64,000 bases of DNA from Haliotis cracherodii (taxonomy: Eukaryota): the NCBI RefSeq assembly GCF_022045235.1, contig NW_027266330.1:19530001-19594000 (forward strand), given 5' to 3'. Below are positions 4,201-26,834 of the stretch, piece after piece. Numbering within the stretch: the stretch's first letter is position 1; every line of letters begins with the position of its first letter. The translations under genes and the position numbers were made by a program. A model generated the notes under the pieces. The model had not been told where the DNA came from. It ran no database searches and saw nothing but the letters and a program-made list of their open reading frames with translations.

Positions 4201-5976
4201 TAAATCTCTATTTTACTACTAATGTCTCATGTTGTATCATAAAGCTTAGCTTCATTTTACACATGTATTTATGCACTTCAACTTATGTCTAAGCATACTA
4301 TATAACATGTTGGCGCTCAGTAAAACATTCCTGCAAATGTGTTTGATGCTTATGTTGTTTATTCAAAATGGGGATCTGATGGTCACAATGGGTAGGAGTG
4401 TCGCTTTCAGGCTCCACTGAGCTAAATAGAATCAGTTGTGTGGCCAGCAGCCTTCGTATAGATGAGGCTCGCAGTGAAGAAGCTTGCAGCTGTGATTGGA
4501 TAATATTGTGTAAGATTTTCATGTTTTTTTTAAAGTAGATCCACCAAGTAGTTAAAATTGACCACGTTCTTTTGCAATATATAGTGCTGTTTGTTTAACA
4601 TCATTACTTATAAATGAATTTGTCCACAGATATTTTCAAGTAATTACCATTTGGTGCAGAACTGCTGTTGGGGTTTAGTTTCCTGTACCCGCTATGGACA
4701 CAAGTACATGGATGTGCTGCCTAAATATGTTTTTAAAACATATGTTTTAAACGTATTTATAATTTGTGAAGCTGGATTGGTAAACAAGTAAAGACGTATG
4801 CCAATACTACTCCAGTTGTCATAAATTATAATGTACAGTCAAGGTTAATAATAAGGTAATTATATTGTATAAAAACACAGTTGTCGACTCTGAACATGCT
4901 GAAGTCAAACGCTGTAAGCAAAAATCAGATACATTTGAGATTAATCAATAGTTTGCACTGGGAACAAAATGGGATATCTGCCAAAGGCTGATATGAAATT
5001 ATGAACAGGTATTAGTATTAAATTTTCTAAATTAAACTTTGCTGTAACATTTGCTTTTAAATAAAGAATAGAGTTTACATCATAACCTTTAGAGTAAAGA
5101 TACATGTTTCTTCTTATGCCGGTGTAGAAATTGTGAAGTGCATCTTCATGGTGGTAGCCACAAGAACAATTTGGATAAGCTGATATAAACATTAGCATAG
5201 AGGTAACTACACCCAGGTCTCAGGTGACAGTGCACAATTTGGTTGAACCTAGAGCCATTATTAATATCAAATTTGTTGCATTGCATTTCATCACCTTTCA
5301 TCATTCTTTTGAAAGCATTCAATGTACTAGTTTAAGTATATGCAACAGGCAAGGTATTCCAGGGTTTGACTGGAGCAGGAAGACAAGAATGTGCATAGCT
5401 TGCTGTTCTGCAATTTAGTGTCTCTAATTTAGAGCTATTCCTTAGGTTGTAGTCATTAGTATCTGATACTTTAGGTGGGACGAGATCACAGAGATAGCTA
5501 GGTGCAAGGTTAATGAACACTTTGTAAAAAGTATTTAAGTTTGGTTTGATGTCTTATTTCACTAAGAGGCAAACAATTTCATTCGGTATATTGTTGCAGT
5601 GACTCGTACCAGGAACCGCCCCACATATTGCCCCAAGCGCATCTAGGTTAAGCCTCTTTTCAAGCAACAGAGACTGCTCCTTTGAACAGTTATCTCAGAT
5701 GTGGCAGCAATACTAGGAATTGTGCAGCATAAAAGAGGTGTACATAGTTTCCAATGTTTTCCTATTTAAACGATATTTAAAACATCTGAGACAGTTTATA
5801 ATAGGACTTACTTTTTTAACTATTTCACTGATGTGCTCACTCCGAGAGCAGTCGTTTTGGAGAATAATTCATAAATGTTTGTGGGATTGAACTTCCTTGA
5901 TGATATTGTCACTCATTTTAGTTAAGGTTTAGGATTAGGAGTTACTTTACGGGTGGACTGGGTAGAAATTCTACTT

Positions 5977-6171
5977 GAGTGAGTGAGTGAGTGAGTGAGT
6001 GAGTGAGTGAGTGAGTGAGTGTGGTTTTACGCCGCTCTTAGCAATATTCCAGCAATATCACAGCGGGGGACACCAGATACGGGCTTCACACATTGTAACC
6101 ATGTCGGGAATCGAACCCGGGTCTTCGGCGTGACGAGCAAACGCTTTAACCACTGGGCTACCCGACCGCCC
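5977..6171 (-). mobile_element. SINE family A (tRNA-like head with GTC anticodon-like loop, (CACT)n tail)
   Basis: A-box/B-box head (tagcccagtggttaaagcg...gggttcgattccc), shared tail, 7-bp TSD tctactt at 5970-5976 and 6172-6178. Confidence 0.9.
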
Positions 6172-11311: not shown

Positions 11312-11601
11312 TGTAACCTGGGTCCTTTTTCTTGATCTTCGCAATCAGGAGACACCACAGCAGGAACACAACAACTTGTTTCAAGTTGAGATAAGTTTTA
11401 TTTAAACGGTTTTGAATAAGGTAAAACAGATACCGCACATACGTGCTGGCAGCAATCTGAGTTACTTAGGACCCTCTGACCTATCTACTTGCGTCCCGCA
11501 AACCGTTCTCCCCGAATGACGATTTTCCACCTCGTTTTATCCTTAAACTTTTCTACGTCATTCTAATGATAAATTACTATGATGTCACGAGGTTGACCAG
11601 C
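11312..11601 (-). repeat. Outer element 3' LTR (partial; most of U3 absent)
   Basis: About 97% identical to 26018-26315 plus one indel; similarity stops abruptly at 11601. Confidence 0.9.
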
Positions 11602-11711
11602 CACACTTTTCACTTTTGTCTGCACACTTATTATCCACACCGTAGCCGCTAGTTGAACGCCTTCATTCACTTGAAACACACCGTAATTCCCCGCCATTTC
11701 GTTGAGAGTTC

Positions 11712-13881
11712 TTACTGCACCAATTGGAATGAACCTGTTCCTTGATTTGGTTTCTGACTGGGTACGCCAAGGGGTGCCGATGTAAGAGGCATGTTCTCTT
11801 CATCAGAGTTCTCATCGTGGGATGTTCGTCCTTTGCTTATCTTCTCCAGATAAACCGGTGAATGTTTTCTCTTCTGACCCGCTAGTCGTGGAGCTGGTCT
11901 AGGAAAAGCTTCTTGGGATCGTGTGTTGGTGTTTTTTTCGGTCATAGAGATCAACTCTTCCTGGACTGATCGGTGGGTTCTAGGGTTTCTCTCTCTCAGT
12001 CCTACCCGGTCATGATCATTTTGTCTGCTAGCAATATCCCTACTTCTACACTTACTCCTTAAATATGCAATACTAAGTATAAATATAACTATAACCACTA
12101 CACATACTCCAATAATAGCATAAGAAATGGCTAAGGTACTTGATGGATTAGACTGAATACCATTATTAAAATTGATATCTTCATCTGCAATATCTAGATC
12201 ATCCAGTAATTCATCAATGTTATCGACCGGTTCTATCGGTGGAATTTTAAACTGGGTAGTTCCCTTAGTGGACGTTACCAATTTAGCCGTGGGTTTGGAA
12301 ATTGGCGTCGTATACATTTCCAGACTTAGTTCCTTATGGAAACTAGGTCTAATTTTATATTGCGACTCAGGCCTCAAATAAACTGGCAAGCTAAAGTGAG
12401 TCGAGTGTGCGGAGCATCAGATGGGTTTGGATATCACACTTGCCCCCGCCTCTACTGATATAGTAGTGGGTAATTCGGAGTCTGGAGGAAGACAAGCTAA
12501 CTCAATATCTAATCTTTCCTTAGTAAACACTAACCATTTGCCTCTCGCTAATGATTTAATAATAGGAGTGTCTGACGGAGGTTTAATTTCGCTTTCACAA
12601 TTTTCCTTTATCTAATCTGATTTTTTGTAAAAACAGCGAGGTTATACACTCTGGAACCATCGTGGTAACATAAGTAGCCGCAATCAGGGGACAATACGCT
12701 ATATCCTGTCTCGTACAAGATGAAACTTCAGTTTTGTCTAATAGTGTGTATTTTCCTTTATCAGGTGATATCGCCAAAAAGTCGGTCTCGGTTTGGAAGG
12801 TATATGTTGTATTTCCGACTACATTCGGAGTAGGTACCATTACCATTTTGTATAACTCAAAGTACACTGAAATTTGTAGTAGCGGTATCGCCGTTATTAC
12901 ATGGAAGGAATTTCGATCATGTAAAAGCGTAGAATGGAAGTTTTGATAGTACAATTTGAAGGTATCCTTGCTTACTACGTAAGGTAGTCTTTGTGTAGGT
13001 GGTAACCTCCGTTTCAGGGTATACAAGACCTTACGTAGGGCATGTACAGGAATTAATGTCCTAGAGATCTGTCCTTGTATACATCTTATCACTTGATTAA
13101 ACATATCTTGAAAAGTCGCACCCAGGGAGTCAATTGCATTGTTTAACAAATGAAACATAGCGTGAATTTGACCTACTGTTTCCGTATAGGATATTACTGG
13201 CTTCATTCCCAGACTAATTTTGTCGTATAAATCATAAATTTTGGTAGCCATAGTAACCGTGAGATTTCCCAGCCTATTTATACTTGCTCGGTTTACCTGA
13301 ATGTCTGTATTCGTAACGTTTAATATAGTAAGGCTACGTTCTAGTTCATGGATAACCTTTTCCTGGCTATTTCTTAAAGAATTTATGTTCTGCCTAACTC
13401 TATCCATCTCGTCCTGACTTGCTGTACCGAATAATTGGGACAGGAATCCGCCTACATTCAGTAGCGCTCTCTTCTGTCTTTTTCGTTTGCCCTGCGTCCG
13501 TGTAACAGTTTGTAGTTTTCCATACAAAACTCTAAACTTGTTATATTTGTCCAATATCTGTTGGCTCTCCTTTTGTAGCAAAGCCTGAATGCTGTTATGT
13601 ATATATTGATTCACGTCCTCGTATTTACTCGTCGGTATTTCTAATTCGTTCACCGTATTCCGAAACATATGAATATTGTCTTTAATCTTATTTAATTGTC
13701 GGTCATAGGGTCTAAGATCCACTGTGAAAGATATTAGCCAGGGACTATAGGAAGCGTACACGGCGGTCAAGTGTACAAATTTTAGTCCCGCTAAAGCTTT
13801 CCCTGGTTGCACAGACTGCATTAATACAATTATCCCTATAAAGCTTAACACTGAGAGATACCCTAGAACCATCTGTAACAT
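11712..13881 (-). pseudogene. env: Envelope (class I fusion, baculovirus F/errantivirus env-like) glycoprotein, ~720 aa, with one frameshift (~12621) and one stop (~12418)
   Basis: Signal peptide MVLGYLSVLSFIGIIVLM; RKRQKR|ALLNVGGFLSQLFGTA furin site plus fusion peptide; heptad region; Cys-rich segment. The bridging frame IKENCESEIK...KPI*CSAHSTHFSLPVY joins ORF 12595-13881 to ORF 11712-12389, which has a TM helix (LAISYAIIGVCVVVIVIFILSIAYL) and a ~105-aa tail. Confidence 0.88.
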
Positions 13882-13912
13882 ACAATTTTAACAAGTTTGT
13901 ATTCATTCATTA

Positions 13913-13914
<2 letters not shown>

Positions 13915-13962
<48 letters not shown>
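13915..13962. repeat. (TA)n microsatellite between pol and env
   Basis: Direct sequence. Confidence 0.95.
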
Positions 13963-13964
<2 letters not shown>

Positions 13965-14382
13965 AAGCACATACATACATATATAGTTCCCATACTTAAT
14001 CCCGCCATACTATACTCGTATGCAGAGACATAACCAGTAGTTTTACTTATCTTGGCGTGACAGTACATTCCTGACGTCGCCCTGAACCGTGATTACTTGC
14101 GTTCAAGTAAATCAGGTACCTACTCCGACAATTCAACTTACTGAATTAAGTCGTGAGTTTGCCATCTGGGACCTTTACCATAGGCCTATCAGTCTCATCA
14201 CTTTACTGGTTAGTCCAGGATTCCCCGTTTCTGAAACTTCCTCCGAATCGTCGAACTCTATTTCGGTTTCACTGTCTGAATAAGTCTGCTCCATTCTGGC
14301 CCTTTTTTCCTGTTCGTTTACATGAGGGATAAGACCACCCTCCTTTTCAGACCTTCCCTACAAGAAATTGGACTATCCACGT

Positions 14383-15796
14383 CTATAGTCTCCTCAGTAG
14401 GGGAAACGGCTGACCAATGCACGAGCGGTAACTCGTCTTCTGTGTCGTACGAACTGTCACTGTCACTAGACTAAGTCCGTCATTACTCAAGGCCCTTGTT
14501 TCCTCAGCGTCAGCCTCGTTCGGGTCAAGAGGTCCTTGACCTCGTACAAGTGCATCGTTCGCACCTGCCGGTTGGTCGGAATCTGCCTCGGGGTCAGTAT
14601 CCATACTCTCTTCCCCCGAGCTGTAACCTTGCGGTTCTGTCCCTCCTAATTGGTTGTGTTCGTAGTTTCACTGGTAATTCCTTCCTAGCCTTCCCTACCT
14701 TAACCTTATTCAGTATCGGTTGGTATTGTTCCCTTTCCTCATCCCAAGTATTGTCGGGATGTGCCTCCCTTATATTTTCTGCGTGTACTAATTTTGTCTT
14801 CCCTGTCATCTGGTGTCTTATCCTAAAATTCACTGGTGAAATCTGTTCAACTATCCTGTAGTACGGTTTCCACTTTGAGGTTAGTTTCGCTGACACTTCC
14901 AACAAGGTGGTTGGGTCATAGTGGTATACTGCATCACCTACTTTAAACTTTAAACTGGATTTTGTTCTTAGCCCTACTTTCTCCCATATTCTGCTTTACT
15001 TCTAAAAAGGCTGTATTCAATCGCTGCAACATAGTAGGAACATAATCCTCCCCCATGTATTTAAGCTTGGGTTCTAACAGCGTGTCCATTGGTAATAACG
15101 GGTCTCTCCCATACATCAAGAAGTATGGTGTAAACTTTGAGCTCTCATTCACAGATGTACTTATCCCAATCGGTCTGCCTTCTATTGACATACTTACTCA
15201 TTGTGTCCTTCAGAAACCTTTGAAACCTCTCTGTTTCCCCGTTTGATGCTGCATGATAAGCTGAAGTTCTGATGTGATTTATATTTAATTGACCTGTAAG
15301 TTGGCTAATTACATCATTACAGAATTCAGTTCCCCTGTCCGAAATAATTCTTTTAGGGCAAGCATGTCTGGTATTATTTCTTCTAACAATACTCTGGCTA
15401 CCGTCTCTGCTTTCTTATCCGGAACAGGTATAACTTCGGGCCATCCACTAAAATGATCTATAATAGTGAGCATATACCTGTTCCCATTGTCACTCAGAGG
15501 AAAATCTCCACATGTGTCAATGCCAATAATCTGATAGGGATATTCCGGTTGTGGCATGTCTTGCATAAAAACCTTCTGCCTACGTAGCTTTTTAGCGTTG
15601 CACTTATCACATTTGCCCACGTAATTTACTACATCCTTGTACATGTTTGACCAGAAATACCTACTTCGTATCTTGTCATATGTCTTGTCTATGCCCGTGT
15701 GACCACTGTACACATTGTTATGCATACGGTCCAAGATAGTTTGAGACATTTCGCTGGGTATTGCTAACTGTAACGTGGGACTCTTGTTCTTTATTG
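14383..15796 (-). pseudogene. pol: Outer element integrase (frameshifted)
   Basis: HHCC (H-NNVYSG-H...C-DK-C), core IGIDTCG...IIDHFSGWPEV, TPYFLMYGRDP, and GPY/F-type KLTSKWKPYYRIVEQISPVNFRI, spread over several ORFs. Confidence 0.9.
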
Positions 15797-16339
15797 GTCG
15801 TAACTGCCTTTGGGCGTCCAGTGCGACCCTGCTACAGTTACTAAATGTATTGCCGTTCCTGGTCCTTGTGGTCAATTAAGCCATGACATTGCCACTCGCC
15901 TTGTCCACCGCGGCTCGGCTCCGTCAAGGAGTTATTGGTCTAACGACCCTTACTCCAAGTTGTCTGTATCAGCATTCACACACGCATAATAAAGAAACGC
16001 AACACCAGTTTATACTCACATAGTTTTACTTACTCTCAGCCCATCTATCAATACAGGACAGGATCAGACTGGTCAGGCTCGTCACTAGCTGGGGGAAACT
16101 TAGAACGATCGGGATTCGACTCGATCGATTGCAAACCGCGCTCTCCTCTCCTAATGTTGAAGGTATCATTTTATAGTGTTCGAGCCTGGCCTGTCCTTGT
16201 CACATGTCACAATACCTCATTTTGATTCTTTAAAAGTTAGATCTGACCATGAACTCATGCAACTCCTCATTGCAGCTATAATGGTTTTATTTGTTATCAT
16301 TTTTTAATGTTTCTGAGATGCATTTTTAATCTTATAACA
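15797..16339 (-). repeat. Inner element 3' LTR
   Basis: Direct repeat of 24413-24958; one terminal base is missing or changed at 15796; preceded on - by the purine tract aggcggagga (16340-16349). Confidence 0.95.
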
Positions 16340-16656
16340 TCCTCCGCCTGTGGACAAGAGCTGCCCACAGCTCGGAAATTCTAAGCATGAGTTCCGGTCT
16401 GAGATGTAAAATACAATCACAATAAACACAATAGAAGTAAAACAGGATCGATCATTTTCCATATATTAAATTGTAATCAATTTCATTTTTTTTAGAAAGA
16501 TCCGGAAAGCAGCGAATACTTTTACAGTCAAAATGTATTTACCTGGTAAAGAATAAGAGAAATGATCCTATGTTACTTCGTATAACCACAAAGCATAATC
16601 ACCACGAAATATTATTCAAATACAATGTAGAATTAATCAATAGCGATGCATAAATG

Positions 16657-17217
16657 TCAAATGTCACTGCACATGGCCACAATATGGCACCACCATTCAC
16701 GAAAGTTCATTTGTCGCTGGTCCCAATCGAATTCACTGGCTCCTTTCTTGTTTCGAAAAGTCAACTGGCGGAACGCTGCCCAACGTTCTTGAATCTTTGA
16801 AAACACACGGCCTATGCACACAGTCAGGTCCTCGGCTGGGGTGGCAAAGCGAGGTCGATTTTTCTTTACACTGCTTGAGTGTTGACCAGTCTCTGTCTAA
16901 AGATGTTGTATGCCGATAGAGTCACAGCGTGTATGCGGGGGACGCGAGCACCTGTATATGTAGACGGCGCTGGTGCTGACAGATATGGATAACCCTCTGT
17001 GGCTTGCGGTCTGTGTTTTAGCGGCAGAGGTGATAGGACAGTGTTCATCCTCGACAGAAAGCGTGTAGCCAGAAGCCAGATTAATGAGTTGACGTGGACC
17101 AGACGACAGCGGGGGAAGTGCTTGACTCTCCGCCCTATAGAATGGGGTACGGCCATCATCTACAACACTTAAAAATACTGGTAATTCACGAAGAACAAGT
17201 GAATAATACCATACCAA
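16657..17217 (-). pseudogene. Inner element accessory ORF4 (~186 codons, one in-frame TAG at 16897-16899), unknown function
   Basis: ORF 16897-17217 continues in the same frame past TAG (TETGQHSSSVKKNRPRF...EFDWDQRQMNFREWWCHIVAMCSDI*). It sits in a GC-richer block and is preceded by the acceptor-like tttctatag. Confidence 0.45.
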
Positions 17218-17912
17218 CTATAGAAATATGAACACATATGAAGATGTGACAGCAACAGCTCAGACTTCTGCTTGTAAAAATAAGACTATATAAACAATAA
17301 TAGTCTTCTGGCACATGCATATCTGCATATAAGGATGATAACGGCAGGAATCGAATTTTTTGATTAATTGTTACAGGTCCAATTGCGTAGCCAAATATTA
17401 TCATAAAAGACATTAATAAGCACGATCAAATCGCAAAACCCATGGACTGCTTGAACGGACTAACTATCATAAAATTCTAATCAACAACATTCAGCAAATG
17501 CTTTGTAGTTATCAATAACAAAAGGAACAACATATAAAATTATCAAGGGATGGACTGAGAGTACACATTGATACACACATAATGGACGATCAAAGACCTA
17601 GAATTACGTTTACATGAAGCAATTATTAGATAACCATGAACACGTATGCGTATAAATATATCCTTGCACTAGCAAGATAATCGGCGACTATATGTCGTTA
17701 GGATGCTTATCCGTTACCAACCTTAACTAAGTTTCATTAATCACTAACAATCCTACTTGGTAACAATAAAACAATGTCGCCATATGGTTCCTATAAACAC
17801 TCTCGTAGTACACTTATAAGAGGGGGGTAAAAATAGATGAAGGTGAGACGGACAGAAGAAGAGAAACGTATAGTTGAAAAGTAGTGAAGTCGAAGTAGCG
17901 GTTAAATCAACC

Positions 17913-18662
17913 TTACTCGAAATCCGACCACGCTATTTCTAACCGAGGCATGTCGGGATCGAAAGATGACGACCCACTGCTGGGCGAGTCGATGCGGCTT
18001 GGTGATAGGGGCCGTGGAGAAACTAGCGGAGGAGAGAAACGCCTCTCTTCTGGTAAACGCTGTAAGGTAAGTAACGGAGCACTAGAAGACCGTCGTGAAA
18101 TTTGATGGCGTCGAAGACAGTCTTCCAGCAGAGGAAGTGACGCCGTATCGGATACCACAGGGGTCACTAATGGGGCATTAAAAGTGGATGAAATAGGCGT
18201 ATGGCGCACAATTCGACACGACAGCAGCCCATACTCTATCTCCAGAAAGTCCAAAAATTGGACAGACGCTGTGAGATGTAATGGCAAGATATGGCTGGCC
18301 CGCGTTATCCATAATTCCATGGTGCGAAAGGGGGCCGTTCTGGATAATGCAGTCTGCGCACAGGCAAGGAACAGGTATTGTGATCGGAAATACTCCGCCA
18401 ATATCGTCACCTGTTCCAACGCCGCATCGTCCATTTTTCGAAGTTCAATTAGGCAGGGTAATAAACCTGCCAAGTACAAAACCACCCTCCAAAATGGTAG
18501 CGCGCGGAAATATATCGGACAGCTGATAGTCGTGTAGGAGCGCGGACCTTCAGCTATACGAGCCGAATATCCTCGTATGGTGTCCGCTAGTGTCGGGTCA
18601 ACTACCAAGACCTTATCATAAGCTAACCATTGGAAATAAGCATTGTTGTTGAGGGCATCCAT
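17913..18662 (-). CDS. Inner element accessory ORF3, 249 aa, BTB/POZ-like N-terminal half and Ser/Pro-rich tail
   Basis: Uninterrupted ORF from ATG 18662. FWRVVLYLAG...ALEQVTILAEYFRSQYLFLACAQTAL resembles the BTB helices F..IL.YL..G...L..L..A.YF.L..L...C...L. Confidence 0.6.
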   Translation of the reverse strand: MDALNNNAYFQWLAYDKVLVVDPTLADTIRGYSARIAEGPRSYTTISCPIYFRALPFWRVVLYLAGLLPCLIELRKMDDAALEQVTILAEYFRSQYLFLACAQTALSRTAPFRTMELWITRASHILPLHLTASVQFLDFLEIEYGLLSCRIVRHTPISSTFNAPLVTPVVSDTASLPLLEDCLRRHQISRRSSSAPLLTLQRLPEERRFSPPLVSPRPLSPSRIDSPSSGSSSFDPDMPRLEIAWSDFE

Positions 18663-18680
18663 GATCAAAAGTTTAACTGA

Positions 18681-18870
18681 CTGAGAAAGGAGCAAGAGGA
18701 TAAATAGCAAAAATCTCAACAATAAAATCCTTTACAAGGGAATGAGCCAAATAGCACAAAGACACCCTGTACAATGTGATAGACAAAAGTGAAAAAACAA
18801 CGTCTCACCGATACAAGTGAAAGAAGCGACGAGAGTGGGGTCGCTTGTAGGGTTGTAGGGGCCTTAAATA
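18681..18870 (-). promoter_or_regulatory. Putative internal promoter and 5'UTR intron for ORF3
   Basis: TATTTAA (18870-18864), Inr-like CCACTCT (A at 18836), donor cg|GTGAGA (18808), pyrimidine tract plus ttctcAG acceptor (18681) just upstream of the ATG. Confidence 0.5.
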
Positions 18871-19390
18871 CCTAGTATACCCTACCGACCATGATGCAGA
18901 GGGTAACACGTGGCCTGTCGTTAAAAGGTTTTTTAAAACAAAGACATTAAATTATAAAGTAACACGTGCCAAAATATCCTATTTGGGCACAGAAAACCAT
19001 CATCATTATTTCAAGGCAGCTGGCAAAAATGGAGAGGTCAACATAGCTTTTTAAAAAACCTCAGAGGATACTGCCCTCGATGTGAATCATGTCAGAGGCA
19101 ACGGAAAAGCGACTCCACAATGTTGAAGTACCATAAAACACCTGTCGTGGAAGGAAGGAATCGTTTTAAACGAAACGCCATTAGCCAACTTACATAAATT
19201 TTTCCAGAAATATATATAGATTGTGTCGGGGTTTGAATTTGCAAATTGTGACAATCAAACAGTAAATAATAAGTGAGGAATACCTGCTGAATACGAAAAT
19301 TAGTTAAAGGATTTCCAGCCGTTAACGTGAGGTCCCGGGGACAAAGATAAAACTGTGAGACCATAATTTCATGACAAGCAAAGGAATTTG

Positions 19391-22300
19391 TCAAATGTAA
19401 AACCTTGTCTTCCTGTCATAGTAATATTTCGCTTTGTTGTGGGCCTCTTGTAAATTGGTACGCGCCAATTTTCTAGTAACGTCTTTATGATGTAAAATTA
19501 CATCAAGCCGTTGCTTAATTGTTTGTGGTAGGGGTTCAAATGATTGTAATTCAACATCAACGGGTACTGAGCATTCTTGACCAAACAGGAGAAAGTAGGG
19601 TGAAAACCCAGTACTCTGCGTTGCCGGGCTAGTGTTATAGGCAAACATAACACCAGGGAGAAGCTCATCCCAATTGTCCTGGTTATCATTGATAAATATG
19701 CGGAGCGTTTGCACGATAAACGAATTTAGTCTTTCACAAGCTCCGTTGGTTTGTTGGTGATAACTACTAGTTTTCAATGGTTTGATCCCCAATATTGAAC
19801 ACACCGCTGTAAAGAGTTTGCTGGTAAAGGAAGTGCCATTATCAGTCAATAACACTCTGGGGATACCATAAACACAAATGTATTTTGAGTAGAATGTCTT
19901 GGCTACTTCCACAGCCTCCAACGAGGAAATCGGAATAGCCACGCTCCATCGGGAAAATGCGCAAGTTAACAAAAAAACATACCTATGACCTGCTTTTGTG
20001 GGTGGTAACGGCCCTAGGAAGTCAGCTTGAACACGATCAAACAATTTACCAGGGACTGGTACATGACAAAATATACTGCTTTATGTCCTCCAGCATATGA
20101 TGCCAATAGTACTTCTGTCTAATAGCATTGAATGTTCTGTCAATACCAACATGTCCAGCCAACAAGCTGTCATGGTATGCTTGTAAAACATGTTTTACCA
20201 ACGACTGAGGTATCACCAGTTGACGAATGATTCTGTCTTTCCTGTGGCCCCGGCCGGGCGGCGCATACAAGTGGTACAATATGTCATTGTCAAGGATAAA
20301 ATCCTGGCTTTGTAACAATAATGTACGTGTGGCCTTGTCATCAGTAGAAAAGGTTTGAGACTTAATGCAATCAATCAGCGCCCGTAGTTTATGGTCGTCA
20401 TATTGCCTCTGTGCTATGGAGTAATCTCCTAGGGGGTCGGACGTTACACTGAGAGGGTCGTTAATTGTGGAGGCATCATACAACTCTGATGTTACATCTG
20501 TTGCAGTCACAATCGATATTTGGTCGCCGTGGTCATCGGACTTGGCGAGAACATTGTCTGTACTGTTCGTATCAGTAGCAAACAAATAGGGGACATCTGA
20601 AAGTGGGTCATCTAACCCTGGTGGGCATTCTGGGTAAGGCAATCTGGACAAGAAATCTGCGTTACCCAAGTTTTTGCCTGGCCGATACTGAACTGTGAAA
20701 GTGTAATCACTCAATAAGAGTGACCAGCGGCTCAGTCTGGCTGAGCGGTCCTTATTGTCTTTCAAAAACTGTAAAGCTCTGTGATCTGTCACTACAGTAA
20801 ATGGGGCATGTGTCAAATATACCTTGAAATGTTTGATACCTGAAACTACTGCTAAACATTCTTTTTCTGTAATTCCATAGTTTTTCTCTGTTTTTGACAG
20901 AGCACGACCACTGTAGGCTCTGTTACTGGCATCTTTTTGACCGAGCAAATACCCTAGAGCGTCATCACTAGCATCTGTGTATAGGATAAATGGTTTTTCA
21001 AAATCTGGGAATGCTAAAATGGATGGTTTTAGCAAAGCAGATTTGAGGGTTTGAAATGCCTGTTCTTGTGCTTCCGTCCAAACAAATTTTGTATCCTTTT
21101 GCAACAATGAATGAGCTGCTACTTTGGAGAAACATTGAATGAAGCGACAATAAAATCCTACCATTCCGAGGAAACTTTTAACGTCTTTAGGCGTTGTTTG
21201 CGTCGGAAACGAAGCTATCACGCTAGTATTTTCAGGGTCTACTTGTACTCCACTATTTGAAAAAATATGTCCCAAGTAAGCAACTGACAGTTTAGCAAAT
21301 TGGCATTTTGATGGCTTCGCTTTCAAATTTGCGTTGCGTAGGCACAAAAATACTTCTTCTAAATCTGCTAAATGTGTTTCAAAATCCGAGGAGAAGCACA
21401 AAACATCATCTAAACAGCACATTGTTTTACGCCAATTGAGATTGCGGAAAACGTCATTGATCAGTCTTTGAAATGTTGCTGGGGCAGAAGCCAGACCAAA
21501 GGTCATACGATTGAAGTGATAGGTACCACTAGCTGTCACAAATGCACTTTTAGGTTTACTTTCTTCATTCAGCGCTAATGGCCAATATCCCGCTGCCAGA
21601 TCTATAGTTGTGTAATATTTTGCATGTGCTGTGCCCAAAACATCAAGAACATCTTCTAATCTCGGCATTGGGAATACTATCGGCAATGAGCACGAATTCA
21701 CAACTCTGTAGTCGATGGCTAGACGCCATGATGGAGTAGAACCCTTGGCCTGTTTCTTAGGCACCATAACAACTGGAGAAGCCCAGGGGCTATCATGATC
21801 TGGTTCAAATATGCCTAAATCTACTAACTCCTGAACTTGACGATCTATCTCTACACGCATAGCAGGATTTGTACGGTAAAATCGTTGCCTAACGGGTGGG
21901 GCATCTCCTGTAGCAATATCTCCTGCATGCACTGAATCATTTAACCCAATTTCTGAGAGATTAATGGCAAAACAGTCGCGATACCTGGCTATCAACTGAC
22001 CTATTTGTGCTTGTTGCTCCTGTGACAAGTGGGATGAAGAAAAATCAATATTCAACTCACTTAATCTCGCGTCTATTTCTGACTGAGAGAGGGAGGGTTC
22101 CGATTCGGAGGGGTAATGTGACTGTAGGGGTGTAATTTCATCGGAGTGTACCAAAGTGAAATGAGCAACTTCATGACCTTTTGGAATGTCCACAGCAAAA
22201 TCGTTAGTGTTAATGACTTGGTACACGCTTTTCCCTGAACTTGCCGAAACAAGACAACGAGCACCAACAACCTGATGTGTTTCCGACAGGACTGGGTTAG

Positions 22301-22992
22301 GTTCACATATGCCTACCTGATCAGACGGGGAGCAACCCATGTAAACTGGGAATATGATTTCAGACTGAGGGGGAATTGTGAATGCCTGCAGTGCTCGAAC
22401 CGGGATGGTTTCCTGCTCTACCGTCTGTGGATAGGGGTCCGATACTAGGGGTGGGATATCATTGTTTGCCCAAATGGAAACAACTGATGAGCCATTTTGA
22501 AGAGTTAAAGTGCAAGATTGGAAATTTAAGACAGCATCTTTCTGAATCAGAAAATCTAATCCTAAAAACATTGGTGACGCTAACTCTGCAACTACTTGAA
22601 AGCGTTGTTCCATTTGAAAATCACCAATTGTGATGGGAAGTAAAACTTGTCCTAATACTGGTACAATATTTTGACCTTTTCCCTGAAGAGAGGTCACATC
22701 AGACTTTTGAATGGGGATTTCTTTCCACAGACCCGAGTCATAAAAAAACTTCCCGACTTAAAATACTAATAGAAGCGCCTGAATCCACAATTGTAGAAAC
22801 TAATTGGTCTCCCAAAATAACATGAATCCTATGCTTGTTGTCATCTTTTGAAGTGACTTGCAAAACAGGCGATTGAGGACGACTGTAACTTGGTGAAATA
22901 GTAACCGGCGACTCACGCGAGTGCAAGTTAGTGGGGACAAAAACATGCTCAGCACAGTGGCAATGTGGCTTGCGTGGTCGGGAATTTAATTG
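19391..22992 (-). pseudogene. pol: Inner element pol (protease-RT-RNaseH-integrase), disrupted
   Basis: Protease IVDSGAS; RT SPWASPVVMVPKK...DYR...MTFGL...CLDD (catalytic YxDD mutated); RNaseH LYTDAS...EKECLA...TDH; IN H..GH...YYW, DFLGPLP, TDNG, ERLN. Frameshifts at about 22740 and 20046; IN C-terminus truncated. Confidence 0.93.
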
Positions 22993-24051
22993 CTATCTGC
23001 TTTGAGGAGCTCCTGACTGCAACCGGGCATTACAAACACGTTGCAAATGTCCCACTCTCTGACAATAATGACACCTTATATTACGGGCGGGACATCTATC
23101 AGGGTGAGAGAAATCATACTCACCACCGCATCTGTAACAGGGGCGTGCCCGAGCCATGGTCCGTCCAGTGTTGTACTGTGTGCGTTGAGGAGGGGGCTGG
23201 CGTCTCTGCTGGTGTGGTCCGTCCGGATACGAGAGTGGCTGGAACTGCTGTCGGGGAGGCTGCCACGGCCGAGTTGTATACCTAGAGGACTGTCTGGGGG
23301 GTTGGGAATATCGATTCTGTCGTGACTGGAAGGTATTAATCTGGGACGACGATGGTGCGAGCTTTGCCGCGAGTGTAGCAATCTGGTCTCTCAGAGTATC
23401 AATTGCCAACTTGACACCTGTATTTTCTGCAATTTGAGGGATTATGGATCGAGCCAAACGTGCAAACGAAACAGCTTCGTTCAGAGCTGTCGGCTGTTTT
23501 ATTAGCACGTGTTGCCTCGTACAGTCATCCAGTCCCCGAACAAATGCATCCATCAAGTCCATGTCAGTCTTACCTAATAGGCTAGCTGTCTGGGTCAAAT
23601 CCGCTAAATACGTGTCTATAGGTTCAGTTGGGGATAACCTACGACTCACGAAAGATTCTAGAAGGGCCCACCGGTCAGTTGGGTGGACGTACTTGTCCCT
23701 GAATAATTTCTCTACCTCATCCAAAATGATGATATCTTCCCCTAGCGATTGTATAAGATCTTTGTACCAGAGATACGCAGAGTCCTTCAAAAATAGTGGA
23801 AAAACTTCTACTTTCTGTGCGTCAGTCCACTTTTTAAAGTTTCCAAAATGAAGGAAACGGTCAAGCCATTCCGCAGCATGAGTCGTGTCTCTGCCAGTGA
23901 AATGTTCTGGCATCAAGGTCGAATCTCCCATATTGAAGTCAGGGGGTGGATTTTGTGCGTCGGGGCCTGAGGACGAACTTAATGAGGAAACGTCAGGGAG
24001 AACACAAGCGTACTGATGTAAAAGCTCGTCGGTAGAGGGAGATAAGTCCAA
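22993..24051 (-). CDS. gag: Inner element Gag with two zinc knuckles
   Basis: PEHFTG...EWLDRF capsid-like region; CYRCGGEYDFSHPDRC and CHYCQRVGHLQRVC knuckles. Likely ATG at 23931, or a frameshifted N-terminus from 24230. Confidence 0.9.
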   Translation of the reverse strand: MDLSPSTDELLHQYACVLPDVSSLSSSSGPDAQNPPPDFNMGDSTLMPEHFTGRDTTHAAEWLDRFLHFGNFKKWTDAQKVEVFPLFLKDSAYLWYKDLIQSLGEDIIILDEVEKLFRDKYVHPTDRWALLESFVSRRLSPTEPIDTYLADLTQTASLLGKTDMDLMDAFVRGLDDCTRQHVLIKQPTALNEAVSFARLARSIIPQIAENTGVKLAIDTLRDQIATLAAKLAPSSSQINTFQSRQNRYSQPPRQSSRYTTRPWQPPRQQFQPLSYPDGPHQQRRQPPPQRTQYNTGRTMARARPCYRCGGEYDFSHPDRCPARNIRCHYCQRVGHLQRVCNARLQSGAPQSR

Positions 24052-24396
24052 ACTCTGTTCAGAAATAGGGGAGAGGGTTCCTGGGGAGGAGGCGGCGGTG
24101 GGGGTGGTTGGGAGGGAGGTTTTGTTAGGACAACTCGGGGGGAATTCGAGAAAATCGTACCAGTAAGGAGGCGAGCTGGGGCAAGACGGTCACCTGACGG
24201 AGATGTATCAGAATTTGGTGTATGAGACATTACCAGCCCAACTACACCATGTAAGTCCAGAATACCCTATCCATACGTCAAAATGAAACCGTACCTTCAA
24301 ACGTAAGTCTGGGTGGGGCGATGGAATTGAAGGATGGGAACGACAATACGAAAAACAAAGAATGGGATCGTCTTAAACATTTTGTTCAAGAGAAAA

Positions 24397-24412
24397 CCCG
24401 CATACTCCACCA
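24397..24412 (-). promoter_or_regulatory. Primer binding site, tRNA-Ala-like
   Basis: TGGTGGAGTATGCGGG directly follows the 5' LTR; complementary (1 mismatch) to a tRNA-Ala 3' end CCCGCATTCTCCACCA. Confidence 0.75.
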
Positions 24413-24958
24413 TGTCGTAACTGCCTTTGGACATCCAGTGCGACCCTGCAACAGTTACTAAATGTATTGCCGTTCCTGGTCCTTGTGGTCAATTAAGCCA
24501 TGACATTGCCACTCGCCTTGTCCACCGAGGCTCGGCTGCGTCAAGGAGTTATTGGTCTAACGACCCTTACTCCAAGTTGTCTCTATCAGCATTCACACAC
24601 GCATAATAAAGAAACGCAACACCAGTTTATACTCACATAGTTTTACTTACTCTCAGCCCATCTATCAATACAGGACAGGATCAGACTGGCCAGGCTCGTC
24701 ACTAGCTGGGGGAAACTTAGAACGATCGGGATTCGACTCGATCGATTGCAAACCGCGCTCTCCTCTCCTAATGTTGAAGGTATCATTTTATATAGTGTTC
24801 GAGCCTGGCCTGTCCTTGTCACATGTCACAATACCTCATTTTGATTCTTTAAAAGTTAGATCTGACCATGAACTCATGCAACTCCTCATTGCAGCTATAA
24901 TGGTTTTATTTGTTACCATTTTCTAATGTTTCTGAGATGCATTTTTAACCTTATAACA
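24413..24958 (-). repeat. Inner element 5' LTR (546 bp, TG...CA)
   Basis: tgtcgtaa...ttataaca; direct repeat of 15797-16339. Confidence 0.95.
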
Positions 24959-25469
24959 CTTCTAATTCTATTTGGAAATAACCACTTTTTAAATCCAGCA
25001 CAGTGTAATACTTTGCCTCGCCCAAATCTGATCTCACATCTTCCATGTGCGGGAGAGGGTAGCTGTTTTGCCTTAACCGACGGTTCAACATTCTTATGTC
25101 TATACATACTCTCAGTGGTTTGTGCGGCTGTTGTACTAACACTACTGGAAAAGCATATTCGCTCGTAGACGGTCTGACAATACCTGCATCTAACAGATCC
25201 TTAATCTTCTGTTCTAACTCTGGTATTTGATTTAGAGGTACCCGGTAGGGTTTCTGCCTAAAGGGGGACTGACCCCCTGTGTCCAATTCTGCCTTGATAA
25301 CGTCAGTCTTTCCTAATTTCATATCCGACTCTACAAATAGTTCTGAATTTGCTCTAAATATTTTCCGTATTGCATAGCGCTGGCCGGGCGGTACATGGTC
25401 AAGTTGTATTTTTCTCAATTTGGCTGTCGTAGGTGTTACTTCTGCTGTTCTTACATGAGTAGTCCCCAC
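24959..25469 (-). pseudogene. pol: Outer element RT N-terminal fragment
   Basis: FRQKPYRVP...IVRPSTSEYAFPVVLV...RVCID.RMLN...YPLPHMED...LDLKSGYFQI, cut by the inner LTR before the YxDD motif. Confidence 0.9.
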
Positions 25470-25752
25470 TCTCCGTATTTGTTCTTCTCAATACCTCTAT
25501 TCTGTGTCTTTCCCTTGCCAGTACTCCTTCTATCCTTCTCCCTTGCATTAGAGAATGATATGCAGTAATAATCTGGGCGGAAGAATTTTCTTGATGCTCC
25601 GTGCCACAAAACTTATGGTACACTATCCAAGCGTTTAGCAGGGGAGACCTTCCTACCCTTTCCCCTAAATTCCTTTCTATGGTTGCTGCACTAACCGGAC
25701 TAACTCTGGCTAGTTCTAATGCTACGTCCCACGGTAGGGAATGGGCGTTCAT
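25470..25752 (-). pseudogene. Outer element first ORF remnant (probable gag N-terminus; rest of gag and protease deleted)
   Basis: ATG ORF about 270 bp after the 5' LTR that abuts the pre-RT region; no capsid, knuckle or protease motifs remain. Confidence 0.45.
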
Positions 25753-26017
25753 TCTATTTCCATCAATTACCTTCCTTTTTAATTTTACTTATATCTATAT
25801 ATTTCCTTAACTTAGTTCTTTGTTAGTTAATTTCTTCTTAACTAAAATCTATACACTAAATGCTAGCAGAACAAATTGAGTCATTTAGGGCAAAACTTAC
25901 CTTGAGAGATTTTCCTAACTGTATTGGTTCCTGGGGTGCTCCTGATTGGAGATTTGTTGTCCAAGATCCGGGTTTCTTGCAGCACCATAACATTTCGACT
26001 CCGGGATCAGTCTAGCT

Positions 26018-26834
26018 TGTAACCTGGGTCCTTTTTCTTGATCTTCGCAATCAGGAGACACCACAGCAGGAACACAACGACTTGTTTCAAGTTGAGATAA
26101 GTTTTATTCAAACGGTTTTGAATAAGGTAAAACAGATACCGCACAAACGTGCTGGCAGCAATCTGAGTTACTTAGAAGCGCAGTGACCTCTGACCTATCT
26201 ACTTGCGTCCCGCAAACCGTTCTCCCCGAATGACGATTTTCAACCTCGTTTTATCCTTAAACTTTTCTACATCATTCTAATGATAAATTACTATGACGTC
26301 ATGAGGTTCACCAGCACGTCACTATTTATTATTATGAAGACTGAGTAGTTAAACAGCTTCTTAGTGACTTATCCGAGGTTTTGACCTCGTATTCTAAGGT
26401 TAATCTCATCTATCAAGTCCTTGATATACCTACAACTATGGAGGTCGGACCAGTTCTCTCCTCGTACAATTCGTATAGTTAATGCTATCTAATAATTTCT
26501 CTTCAATCACCTTGGCTGTTTCGTGACAACCTTAACTCTCTACTTGACTCCGAGATGTCATATTCCTCCCCGTACTCTACACCCTGTCATTCTCAATAGA
26601 AAACCAATTAATTAAATATAATTGGTCGCCACCTGCGCTCCTCGTACATATAGTTATACAACGTGAGTACATTAACAAACCATGTAGTTGTACATATTAA
26701 TTCCTTCACATCATTTCATATCATAGTCAATTTAACACTTTCATATTAATATATAATTCATGTACACAAATATACTTGCATTTATCTTAATTATTTATAT
26801 ATAATTATAACCGGGAGTGCAACCCCTGGTTACA
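26018..26834 (-). repeat. Outer element 5' LTR (817 bp)
   Basis: Inverted termini tgtaacc/ggttaca; - strand AATAAA near 26103-26108; CRE palindrome TGACGTCA at 26294-26301. Confidence 0.88.

Follow-up and report, generated by a model that had tools for sequence, protein, structure and literature searches.

The window analyzed here, a 64,000-nucleotide stretch of the Haliotis cracherodii genome, contains one Gypsy retrotransposon lying within another. The inner element runs along the minus strand, as do all of its features given below. It possesses gag, reverse transcriptase (RT), RNase H and integrase (IN) genes identified by Pfam matches, and is bounded by a 5′ LTR (24414..24958; TG...CA ends) and a 3′ LTR (15797..16339; AATAAA at 16291) that are 97.8% identical (divergence 2.2%). 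Both LTRs lack about 250 bp present in sister LTRs (796 bp), and this common loss suggests that the shortened LTR form was copied before insertion. A tRNA-Ala-like primer-binding site (PBS; 24397..24412) directly follows the 5′ LTR and precedes gag (22993..24189; Retrotrans_gag, Ty3_capsid and zinc knuckle), which has indels near its 5′ end, and pol (19407..22990; protease, RT, RNase H and IN). A long non-coding 3′ region (16340..17912) has a polypurine tract at its end. Thus, LTRs, PBS, polypurine tract, gag and the order of pol domains are all those of an env-bearing Ty3/Gypsy element.

The first-pass annotation, made from the letters alone, had described pol of this copy as disrupted, and we find three lesions in it: a 1-nt insertion shifting the frame near 22748, a 56-nt deletion shifting it near 20061 and a truncation at ~19407. 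Comparison with sister copies places at 19406..19407 the junction of a ~3.27-kb deletion, which removed the IN C-terminus, the chromodomain and most of an F-type env; loose contig ends fall close by, at 19404/19410. Only the last ~100 codons of env, recognized by comparison with sister env, remain (19092..19406). Surrounding the inner element is another, different Gypsy that also bears an env (11312-15796 and 24959-26315 of the window), with a Baculo_F match (3e-15) at 12595-13887. The LTR parts of this outer element are 94% identical, and it is older than the inner one, which splits its pol into RT on one side and integrase on the other. As no target-site duplication accompanies this split, outer sequence was probably lost at the inner insertion.

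Between pol and the 3′ LTR of the inner element lies a 249-aa open reading frame in the sense orientation, ORF4 (17913..18662, ATG to stop), consisting of an N-terminal alpha/beta and then helical domain (aa 1–170) joined to a Ser/Pro-rich tail. The annotation had called it an intact ORF in this position. The location and the open frame stand, but in sister copies a chromodomain and env precede the gene, and relative to them the window ORF4 has lost 246 bp in frame (junction 18150..18151). In sister copies the 82 codons missing here specify a C4HC3 zinc finger with eight ligands, C-x2-C-x18-C-C-x4-H-x2-C-x18-C-x2-C. The open frame of the window copy is by itself weak evidence of selection, since its LTRs diverge by only 2.2% and one third of deletions are in frame. 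Its proposed distinctness from env proved correct: signal peptide, furin site or fusion peptide, C-terminal transmembrane segment and Baculo_F similarity were sought in ORF4 and not found, it has no Pfam match, and a true env lies upstream in the sisters. A single 19-aa window within aa 54–72 reaches a borderline hydropathy of 1.8.

Searching the H. cracherodii genome with ORF4 revealed seven other insertions and two fragments, i.e., 10 loci including the window, and all 10 have flanks of the same LTR family, as a gene belonging to the element should. One-off capture of a host exon, the refuting outcome named by the annotation, is contradicted by these element-borne loci, and no host source was found. 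Specifically, a finger-only search of the genome returned six weak matches outside the family, none of them finger-like. In these sister copies, collectively family A, the gene order is gag-pol(chromo)-env-ORF4, with an ORF4 of ~330 aa, a chromodomain after integrase (Pfam Chromo, 3.6e-12) and an env matching Baculo_F over the cut-off (6.5e-6), possessing a furin site and open frames of up to 796 aa. A long open ORF4 frame (327 aa) is retained in one of the seven sister insertions, the rest containing stops, frameshifts or deletions. The 18151/18150 junction is found in the window copy alone (1/8 insertions). The copy C25 also lacks the finger, with other breakpoints and with part of the N-terminal domain gone too. 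In the window, deletion has left a finger-less version of this fourth gene, which is located after env and encodes ~330 aa in full length. With the finger, the integrase end and env all missing, the window copy as a whole is in all likelihood dead, and its ORF4 product, if expressed, would be ligase-dead.

Several other features of family A were observed along the way. At C6:5476000-5496000 (L040-L041), four tandem 3.58-kb units comprise an LTR, the env 3′ end, ORF4 and the 3′ region; they lack gag, pol and the TATA box and adjoin ~18 single-exon host BTB genes of ~200 aa (C6:5.35-5.46 Mb). Two copies, at C2:44.89-44.90 Mb and C26:0.357-0.368 Mb, have an identical 1.7-kb RT deletion, indicating that a non-autonomous subfamily was mobilized; the LTRs of the C26 copy are 99.7% identical. 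About 850 bp separate the pol stop from the env start (L028 ~5290-6130); no ORF of at least 75 aa occurs in this gap, which is possibly an env promoter or splice region.

Pairwise dN/dS of ORF4 was computed by a method without transition correction, and the ratio among variants private to one copy (0.68) was therefore taken as a neutral yardstick. Across 28 pairs the values range from 0.33 to 0.99 (at most 0.73 in 27 of them); the annotation had asked for values below 1 among copies. The ratio among shared variants is 0.49 for ORF4, 0.38 for env and 0.13 for integrase. A bias-free test counts shared ORF4 variants at codon positions 1/2/3 as 33/25/49 (P=0.005); private variants are flat (78/75/83), and so are both non-coding flank controls. 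The signal comes from codons 1–170 (21/17/37, P=0.003). The finger segment alone shows no constraint by this measure (6/2/4, P=0.61), and its pN/pS is 1.52 (2 synonymous and 9 non-synonymous among 11 changes). Its ligands are kept in 62 of the 63 covered cells across eight loci, while the fingers are 54–96% identical. Judging from the variants common to copies, ORF4 is under purifying selection.

ORF4 is not a fixed component of its family. An env search of the genome produced 152 matches, and the sequence downstream of env was read for 40 of them besides the ORF4-plus copies (12 close and 28 distant). All 12 further close family A copies lack ORF4; where carriers have 1,775 bp, they have ~440 bp of non-coding, AT-rich DNA. 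Loose homology between the plus and minus alleles extends to within a few bases of the TATA box, on its upstream side, and ends there (~18878); contigs with loose ends at 18878 mark the same cassette edge. Carriers and non-carriers interleave on both the env tree (window and C9 excluded) and the 3′-region tree (C26, C25 and L111 excluded). L107 and L108 were dropped as near-duplicates of L106, and one of the four C6 tandem units was used. Monophyly of carriers is rejected (AU test, 5,000 replicates; deltaL 144 for env and 222 for the 3′ region). Synonymous divergence of ORF4 is about twice that of integrase in the same pairs (0.135 vs 0.063; 0.377 vs 0.201). From these comparisons we infer that the presence or absence of ORF4 is an old dimorphism moved by recombination. 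The youngest family A copies seen are two ORF4-minus ones, with LTRs 99.4–100% identical, which indicates that ORF4 is dispensable in cis.

The cassette begins with putative expression signals. A TATA-like box, TATTTAA (18864..18870), the sole one on the sense strand of the element, is followed by a candidate 5′-UTR intron (18681..18808; GT donor at 18808, AG at 18682-18681) whose acceptor lies 18 nt before the ORF4 ATG. These sites, proposed in the annotation, are present, and the TATA box is kept in 6/6 copies covering it and the donor in 8/8, but the acceptor at 18681 is shared by only 4/8; another AG ~60 nt upstream is present in sisters. The TATA-to-donor block is 93% identical among copies vs 89% upstream of it. 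The spliced 18808/18681 junction did not appear in the four runs compared, although contigs cannot show absence. Finger-bearing contigs occur in all three runs that are probably RNA (a guess as to their nature), one of which comes from another organism label and provides a 2,568-nt contig covering ORF4. The probable-RNA contigs retain the candidate intron and extend upstream as far as env, and contigs crossing the ORF4 deletion site carry the finger. In a small-RNA run all 31 placed reads are antisense, and 19 of them start at 18524, defining a ~30-nt species with 5′ U (18524..18553, plus strand). This species is piRNA-like but may represent one molecule.

A post-env ORF was also found at 2 of the 28 distant env loci, whose env proteins are ~23–33% identical; the other 26 lack one. 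The two ORFs, of 467 aa (family B) and 457 aa (family C), lie within LTRs that are 100% and 99.9% identical, respectively, and both have sister copies. For B, dN/dS is 0.12–0.42 (45 pairs); for a subfamily of C it is 0.25–0.40 in 12 deep pairs and 0.68–1.47 in 3 close pairs. Both proteins possess a finger with the same C4-H-C3 order and with ligand 6-to-7 gaps of 43 and 63 aa, longer than in A. The finger pattern, which was written post hoc, matched 0 of 20,000 shuffles for each of the three proteins, and within 1.44 Mb of loci including 30 host RING and ~50 host BTB genes it occurs only in post-env ORFs. TATA-like boxes lie between env and the ORF in B and C too, in AT-rich DNA where chance occurrence is possible. 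The proteins of A and B both terminate in an acidic Ser/Pro tail. Homology between the finger of B and that of C is supported by HHalign (P 94%); family A has no significant match to B or C (HHalign P<1%). On RT and IN trees (11/23 and 9/23 rows excluded, respectively, as short or broken matches), A stands alone on a long branch, and two families in which no ORF4 was seen fall together with B and C. The chromodomain is found only in family A among the loci tested.

Additional copies illustrate the state of these families. A family B copy with identical LTRs (C67:42155300-42164600; L230, L113) has lost gag and most of pol and keeps open env and ORF4 frames. A 16-kb family C element (C20:1.245-1.261 Mb; L119, L231, L322) contains three stop-separated frames (316, 444 and 627 aa) in the gag-to-RT region, suggesting that gag and pol are separated by an additional domain or joined by repeated read-through. 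Recent activity of env-bearing Gypsy families in this genome is evident from more than 12 loci with open env frames of 740–860 aa, several of which have LTRs over 99.5% identical. At C6:0.6-5.6 Mb, numerous copies from each of the three ORF4 families are concentrated; this region may be rich in repeats or resemble a piRNA cluster. ORFs downstream of one env copy on C24 (L117:5406-7079), including a packaging-ATPase-like frame, resemble Polinton/Maverick genes.

Database searches yielded little. A phmmer search with the 249-aa form against 1.84 billion representatives returned only two repetitive chance matches. A word-index search, which covers near lengths only, found nothing for the 327-aa copy or for a mixed A/B/C alignment. 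A tblastn search of phages found none, and PDB sequence searches gave no significant match. The one database relative of family C is an uncharacterized Haliotis rufescens gene model, 95% identical.

We hypothesize, and lean towards the view, that full-length ORF4 is a RING-type ubiquitin ligase whose target, reached in trans, would be a host factor of restriction or silencing. The cassette would produce its own TATA-driven mRNA, probably spliced in the 5′-UTR and with its end in the 3′ LTR. Dimerization, or binding of a cullin or the substrate, would fall to the N-terminal domain (possibly a degenerate BTB), and the finger would recruit an E2 and tag the target for degradation. Since the product would be diffusible, copies without the cassette could ride on carriers, which would explain why both cassette forms persist.

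The eight Cys/His ligands of the finger, present in sister copies and absent from the window copy, have RING-compatible spacing. No Pfam RING profile reaches its curated cut-off (the best, Prok-RING_1, falls under it with E 0.002), the best PDB sequence match, the RING of RNF31, is not significant (E 0.37), and the finger has pLDDT under 30 in the predicted model. The ten best named ESM-Atlas clusters all belong to one RING-type clan, with scores of at most 0.80 that serve as a lead only. The adjacent Cys-Cys as ligands 3 and 4 is shared with the atypical PCC-type RING fingers of G2E3 and PHF7, with which the ORF4 finger has no significant profile or fold match. The best match of the family B finger is C1 (Pfam C1_1, E 2.4e-6, passing the cut-off), an identity that we rejected: B has the His 13 positions before Cys1 and lacks the single Cys ~8 after ligand 6, while A and C lack both C1 marks and end, both of them, in C-x2-C. 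We regard RING as the probable identity of the finger, PHD as an unlikely one and any other type as still less likely.

If the finger were of PHD type, ORF4 could instead be a chromatin reader with an anti-silencing or transactivating role, its N-terminal domain oligomerizing and its acidic Ser/Pro tail activating element transcription. The C4-H-C3 ligand order, the C-x2-C-x4-H-x2-C core of B and C, which fits PHD spacing, and the weak matches of the B finger to PHD and zf-HC5HC2H are consistent with such a function, as are the acidic tails of A and B and the antisense ~30-nt small RNA against ORF4. However, PHD fingers are marked by a Trp two residues before ligand 7, which is missing in families A, B and C, the 43- and 63-aa gaps of B and C are long for PHD, and the Atlas and PDB leads point to RING. 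We consider the chromatin-reader role rather unlikely, though it survives better than the other alternatives.

ORF4 might also be a decaying passenger with a structural or marginal role, e.g., in the virion or in RNA binding, gained separately in A and in B/C. Its absence from 12/12 extra close copies and from 26/28 distant env loci fits this explanation, as does the position of A on an RT/IN branch separate from B and C. It is made improbable by purifying selection in three families and by the conserved TATA-to-donor block. B and C copies of very recent origin also have intact ORFs, and one such copy has lost gag-pol while keeping env and ORF4.

The annotation had assigned the N-terminal part to the BTB/POZ fold, a claim with observations on both sides. 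An AlphaFold model built from a nine-row alignment predicts strands at 10–14 and 17–20, helices at 23–32 and 34–37, a strand at 44–47 and helices at 57–67, 79–94 and 97–107, which completes the BTB order of elements (B1-B2-A1-A2-B3-A3-A4-A5), at pLDDT of ~45–60 in this region and 35 overall; a second AlphaFold model averages 34. The best family-bearing ESM-Atlas cluster, likewise a lead only, is BTB (0.88; 26% of members, with 9/10 in the clan). Yet profile comparisons fail: no Pfam match to PF00651 was found, HHalign P is below 1%, and the domain scores −7 to 14 on a host-BTB profile vs −4.6 ± 10.7 for 84 unrelated windows, with nine held-out host BTBs reaching 82–180. When alignment is forced, a number of BTB motifs coincide, among them the two final helices pointed out in the annotation, with a score within the unrelated range. 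Fold searches with the low-confidence model gave no informative match, and no host donor for ORF4 was found in the genome. Compared with BTB/POZ Cullin-3 adaptors, the modeled element order and some motif positions are alike, with no significant profile or fold match. On balance, we slightly favor a degenerate BTB. That this BTB-like domain acts as a Cullin-3 adaptor or decoy, with the finger-less 249-aa form itself functional, would agree with the modeled BTB order, the Atlas clan assignment, the selection being clearest in codons 1–170 (P=0.003), the in-frame deletion and the second finger-less copy C25, but is very improbable given the single occurrence of the junction (1/8), the different breakpoints and N-terminal loss in C25, the finger-bearing contigs across the junction and a score on the host-BTB profile no different from that of unrelated windows.

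The RING-ligase reading has functional parallels among viruses. Descriptions of env-bearing Ty3/Gypsy elements give them three genes, and complex retroviruses of vertebrates are characterized by accessory genes that attack host restriction. Retroviral accessory proteins include Vif, Vpx and Vpu, and viral RING ligases include HSV ICP0, KSHV K3/K5 and baculovirus IE2/PE38. As proposed here for ORF4, these are products of small non-structural genes that turn ubiquitin against host restriction and are dispensable in cis. The lentiviral proteins borrow host ligases and are expressed from spliced LTR transcripts, whereas ORF4 would supply the finger itself and have a TATA box inside the element. 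No sequence similarity of ORF4 to viral accessory proteins or ligases was found in protein database searches. Element-encoded counter-defense is also known from the VANC anti-silencing proteins, which belong to DNA transposons, whereas ORF4 resides in Ty3/Gypsy. The additional ORF of Grande is reportedly expressed from its own promoter.

The nearest relatives by gene content are the errantiviruses with a chromodomain and F-type env described in Cnidaria, Mollusca and Annelida (PMC13524379, eLife 2026). They share with family A the Ty3/Gypsy gag-pol, the chromodomain after integrase and a Baculo_F-type env, and some gastropod members have an Ala-type PBS resembling that of the window; the selected fourth gene after env sets family A apart from them. 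The main text of that paper makes no mention of accessory, RING or post-env genes, although such ORFs may be present among the element sequences of its supplement. In bdelloid rotifer LTR elements the place of env is taken by ORF3s encoding GDSL esterases or DEDDy exonucleases, for which no deviation from neutral evolution is reported (PMC5408684). These ORF3s resemble ORF4 in being non-env, near the 3′ LTR, patchy and present in diverse element types; in contrast, ORF4 occurs alongside env and is under selection. The additional ORFs of the plant elements Grande, RIRE2 and Retand, antisense and of unknown function, also occupy a long 3′ internal region, as ORF4 does (PMC7264820). Other extra ORFs of plant elements differ from ORF4 in content (PMC8220671), and the elements of PMC12440569 are of a different lineage. 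The annotation knew of no molluscan Gypsy with such a gene, and our search of the openly searchable literature, which leaves repeat databases and closed papers outside its scope, agrees with it in finding no post-env BTB or RING gene described in Ty3/Gypsy.

We speculate that the env-bearing Ty3/Gypsy elements of molluscs amount to “complex” retroviruses, and that a number of their lineages possess a self-promoted post-env BTB-RING ligase that would destroy a host restriction or piRNA-pathway factor and be swapped by recombination as a public good; this combined picture is possible rather than probable. The presence of a selected fourth gene with a RING-like finger in as many as three families within a single mollusc genome suggests that invertebrate errantiviruses have proteins dedicated to combating their hosts. 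The binding partners of ORF4 would then name molluscan anti-retroelement factors, and the plus/minus dimorphism of family A would offer a natural, population-level test of the benefit of ORF4 to the element.
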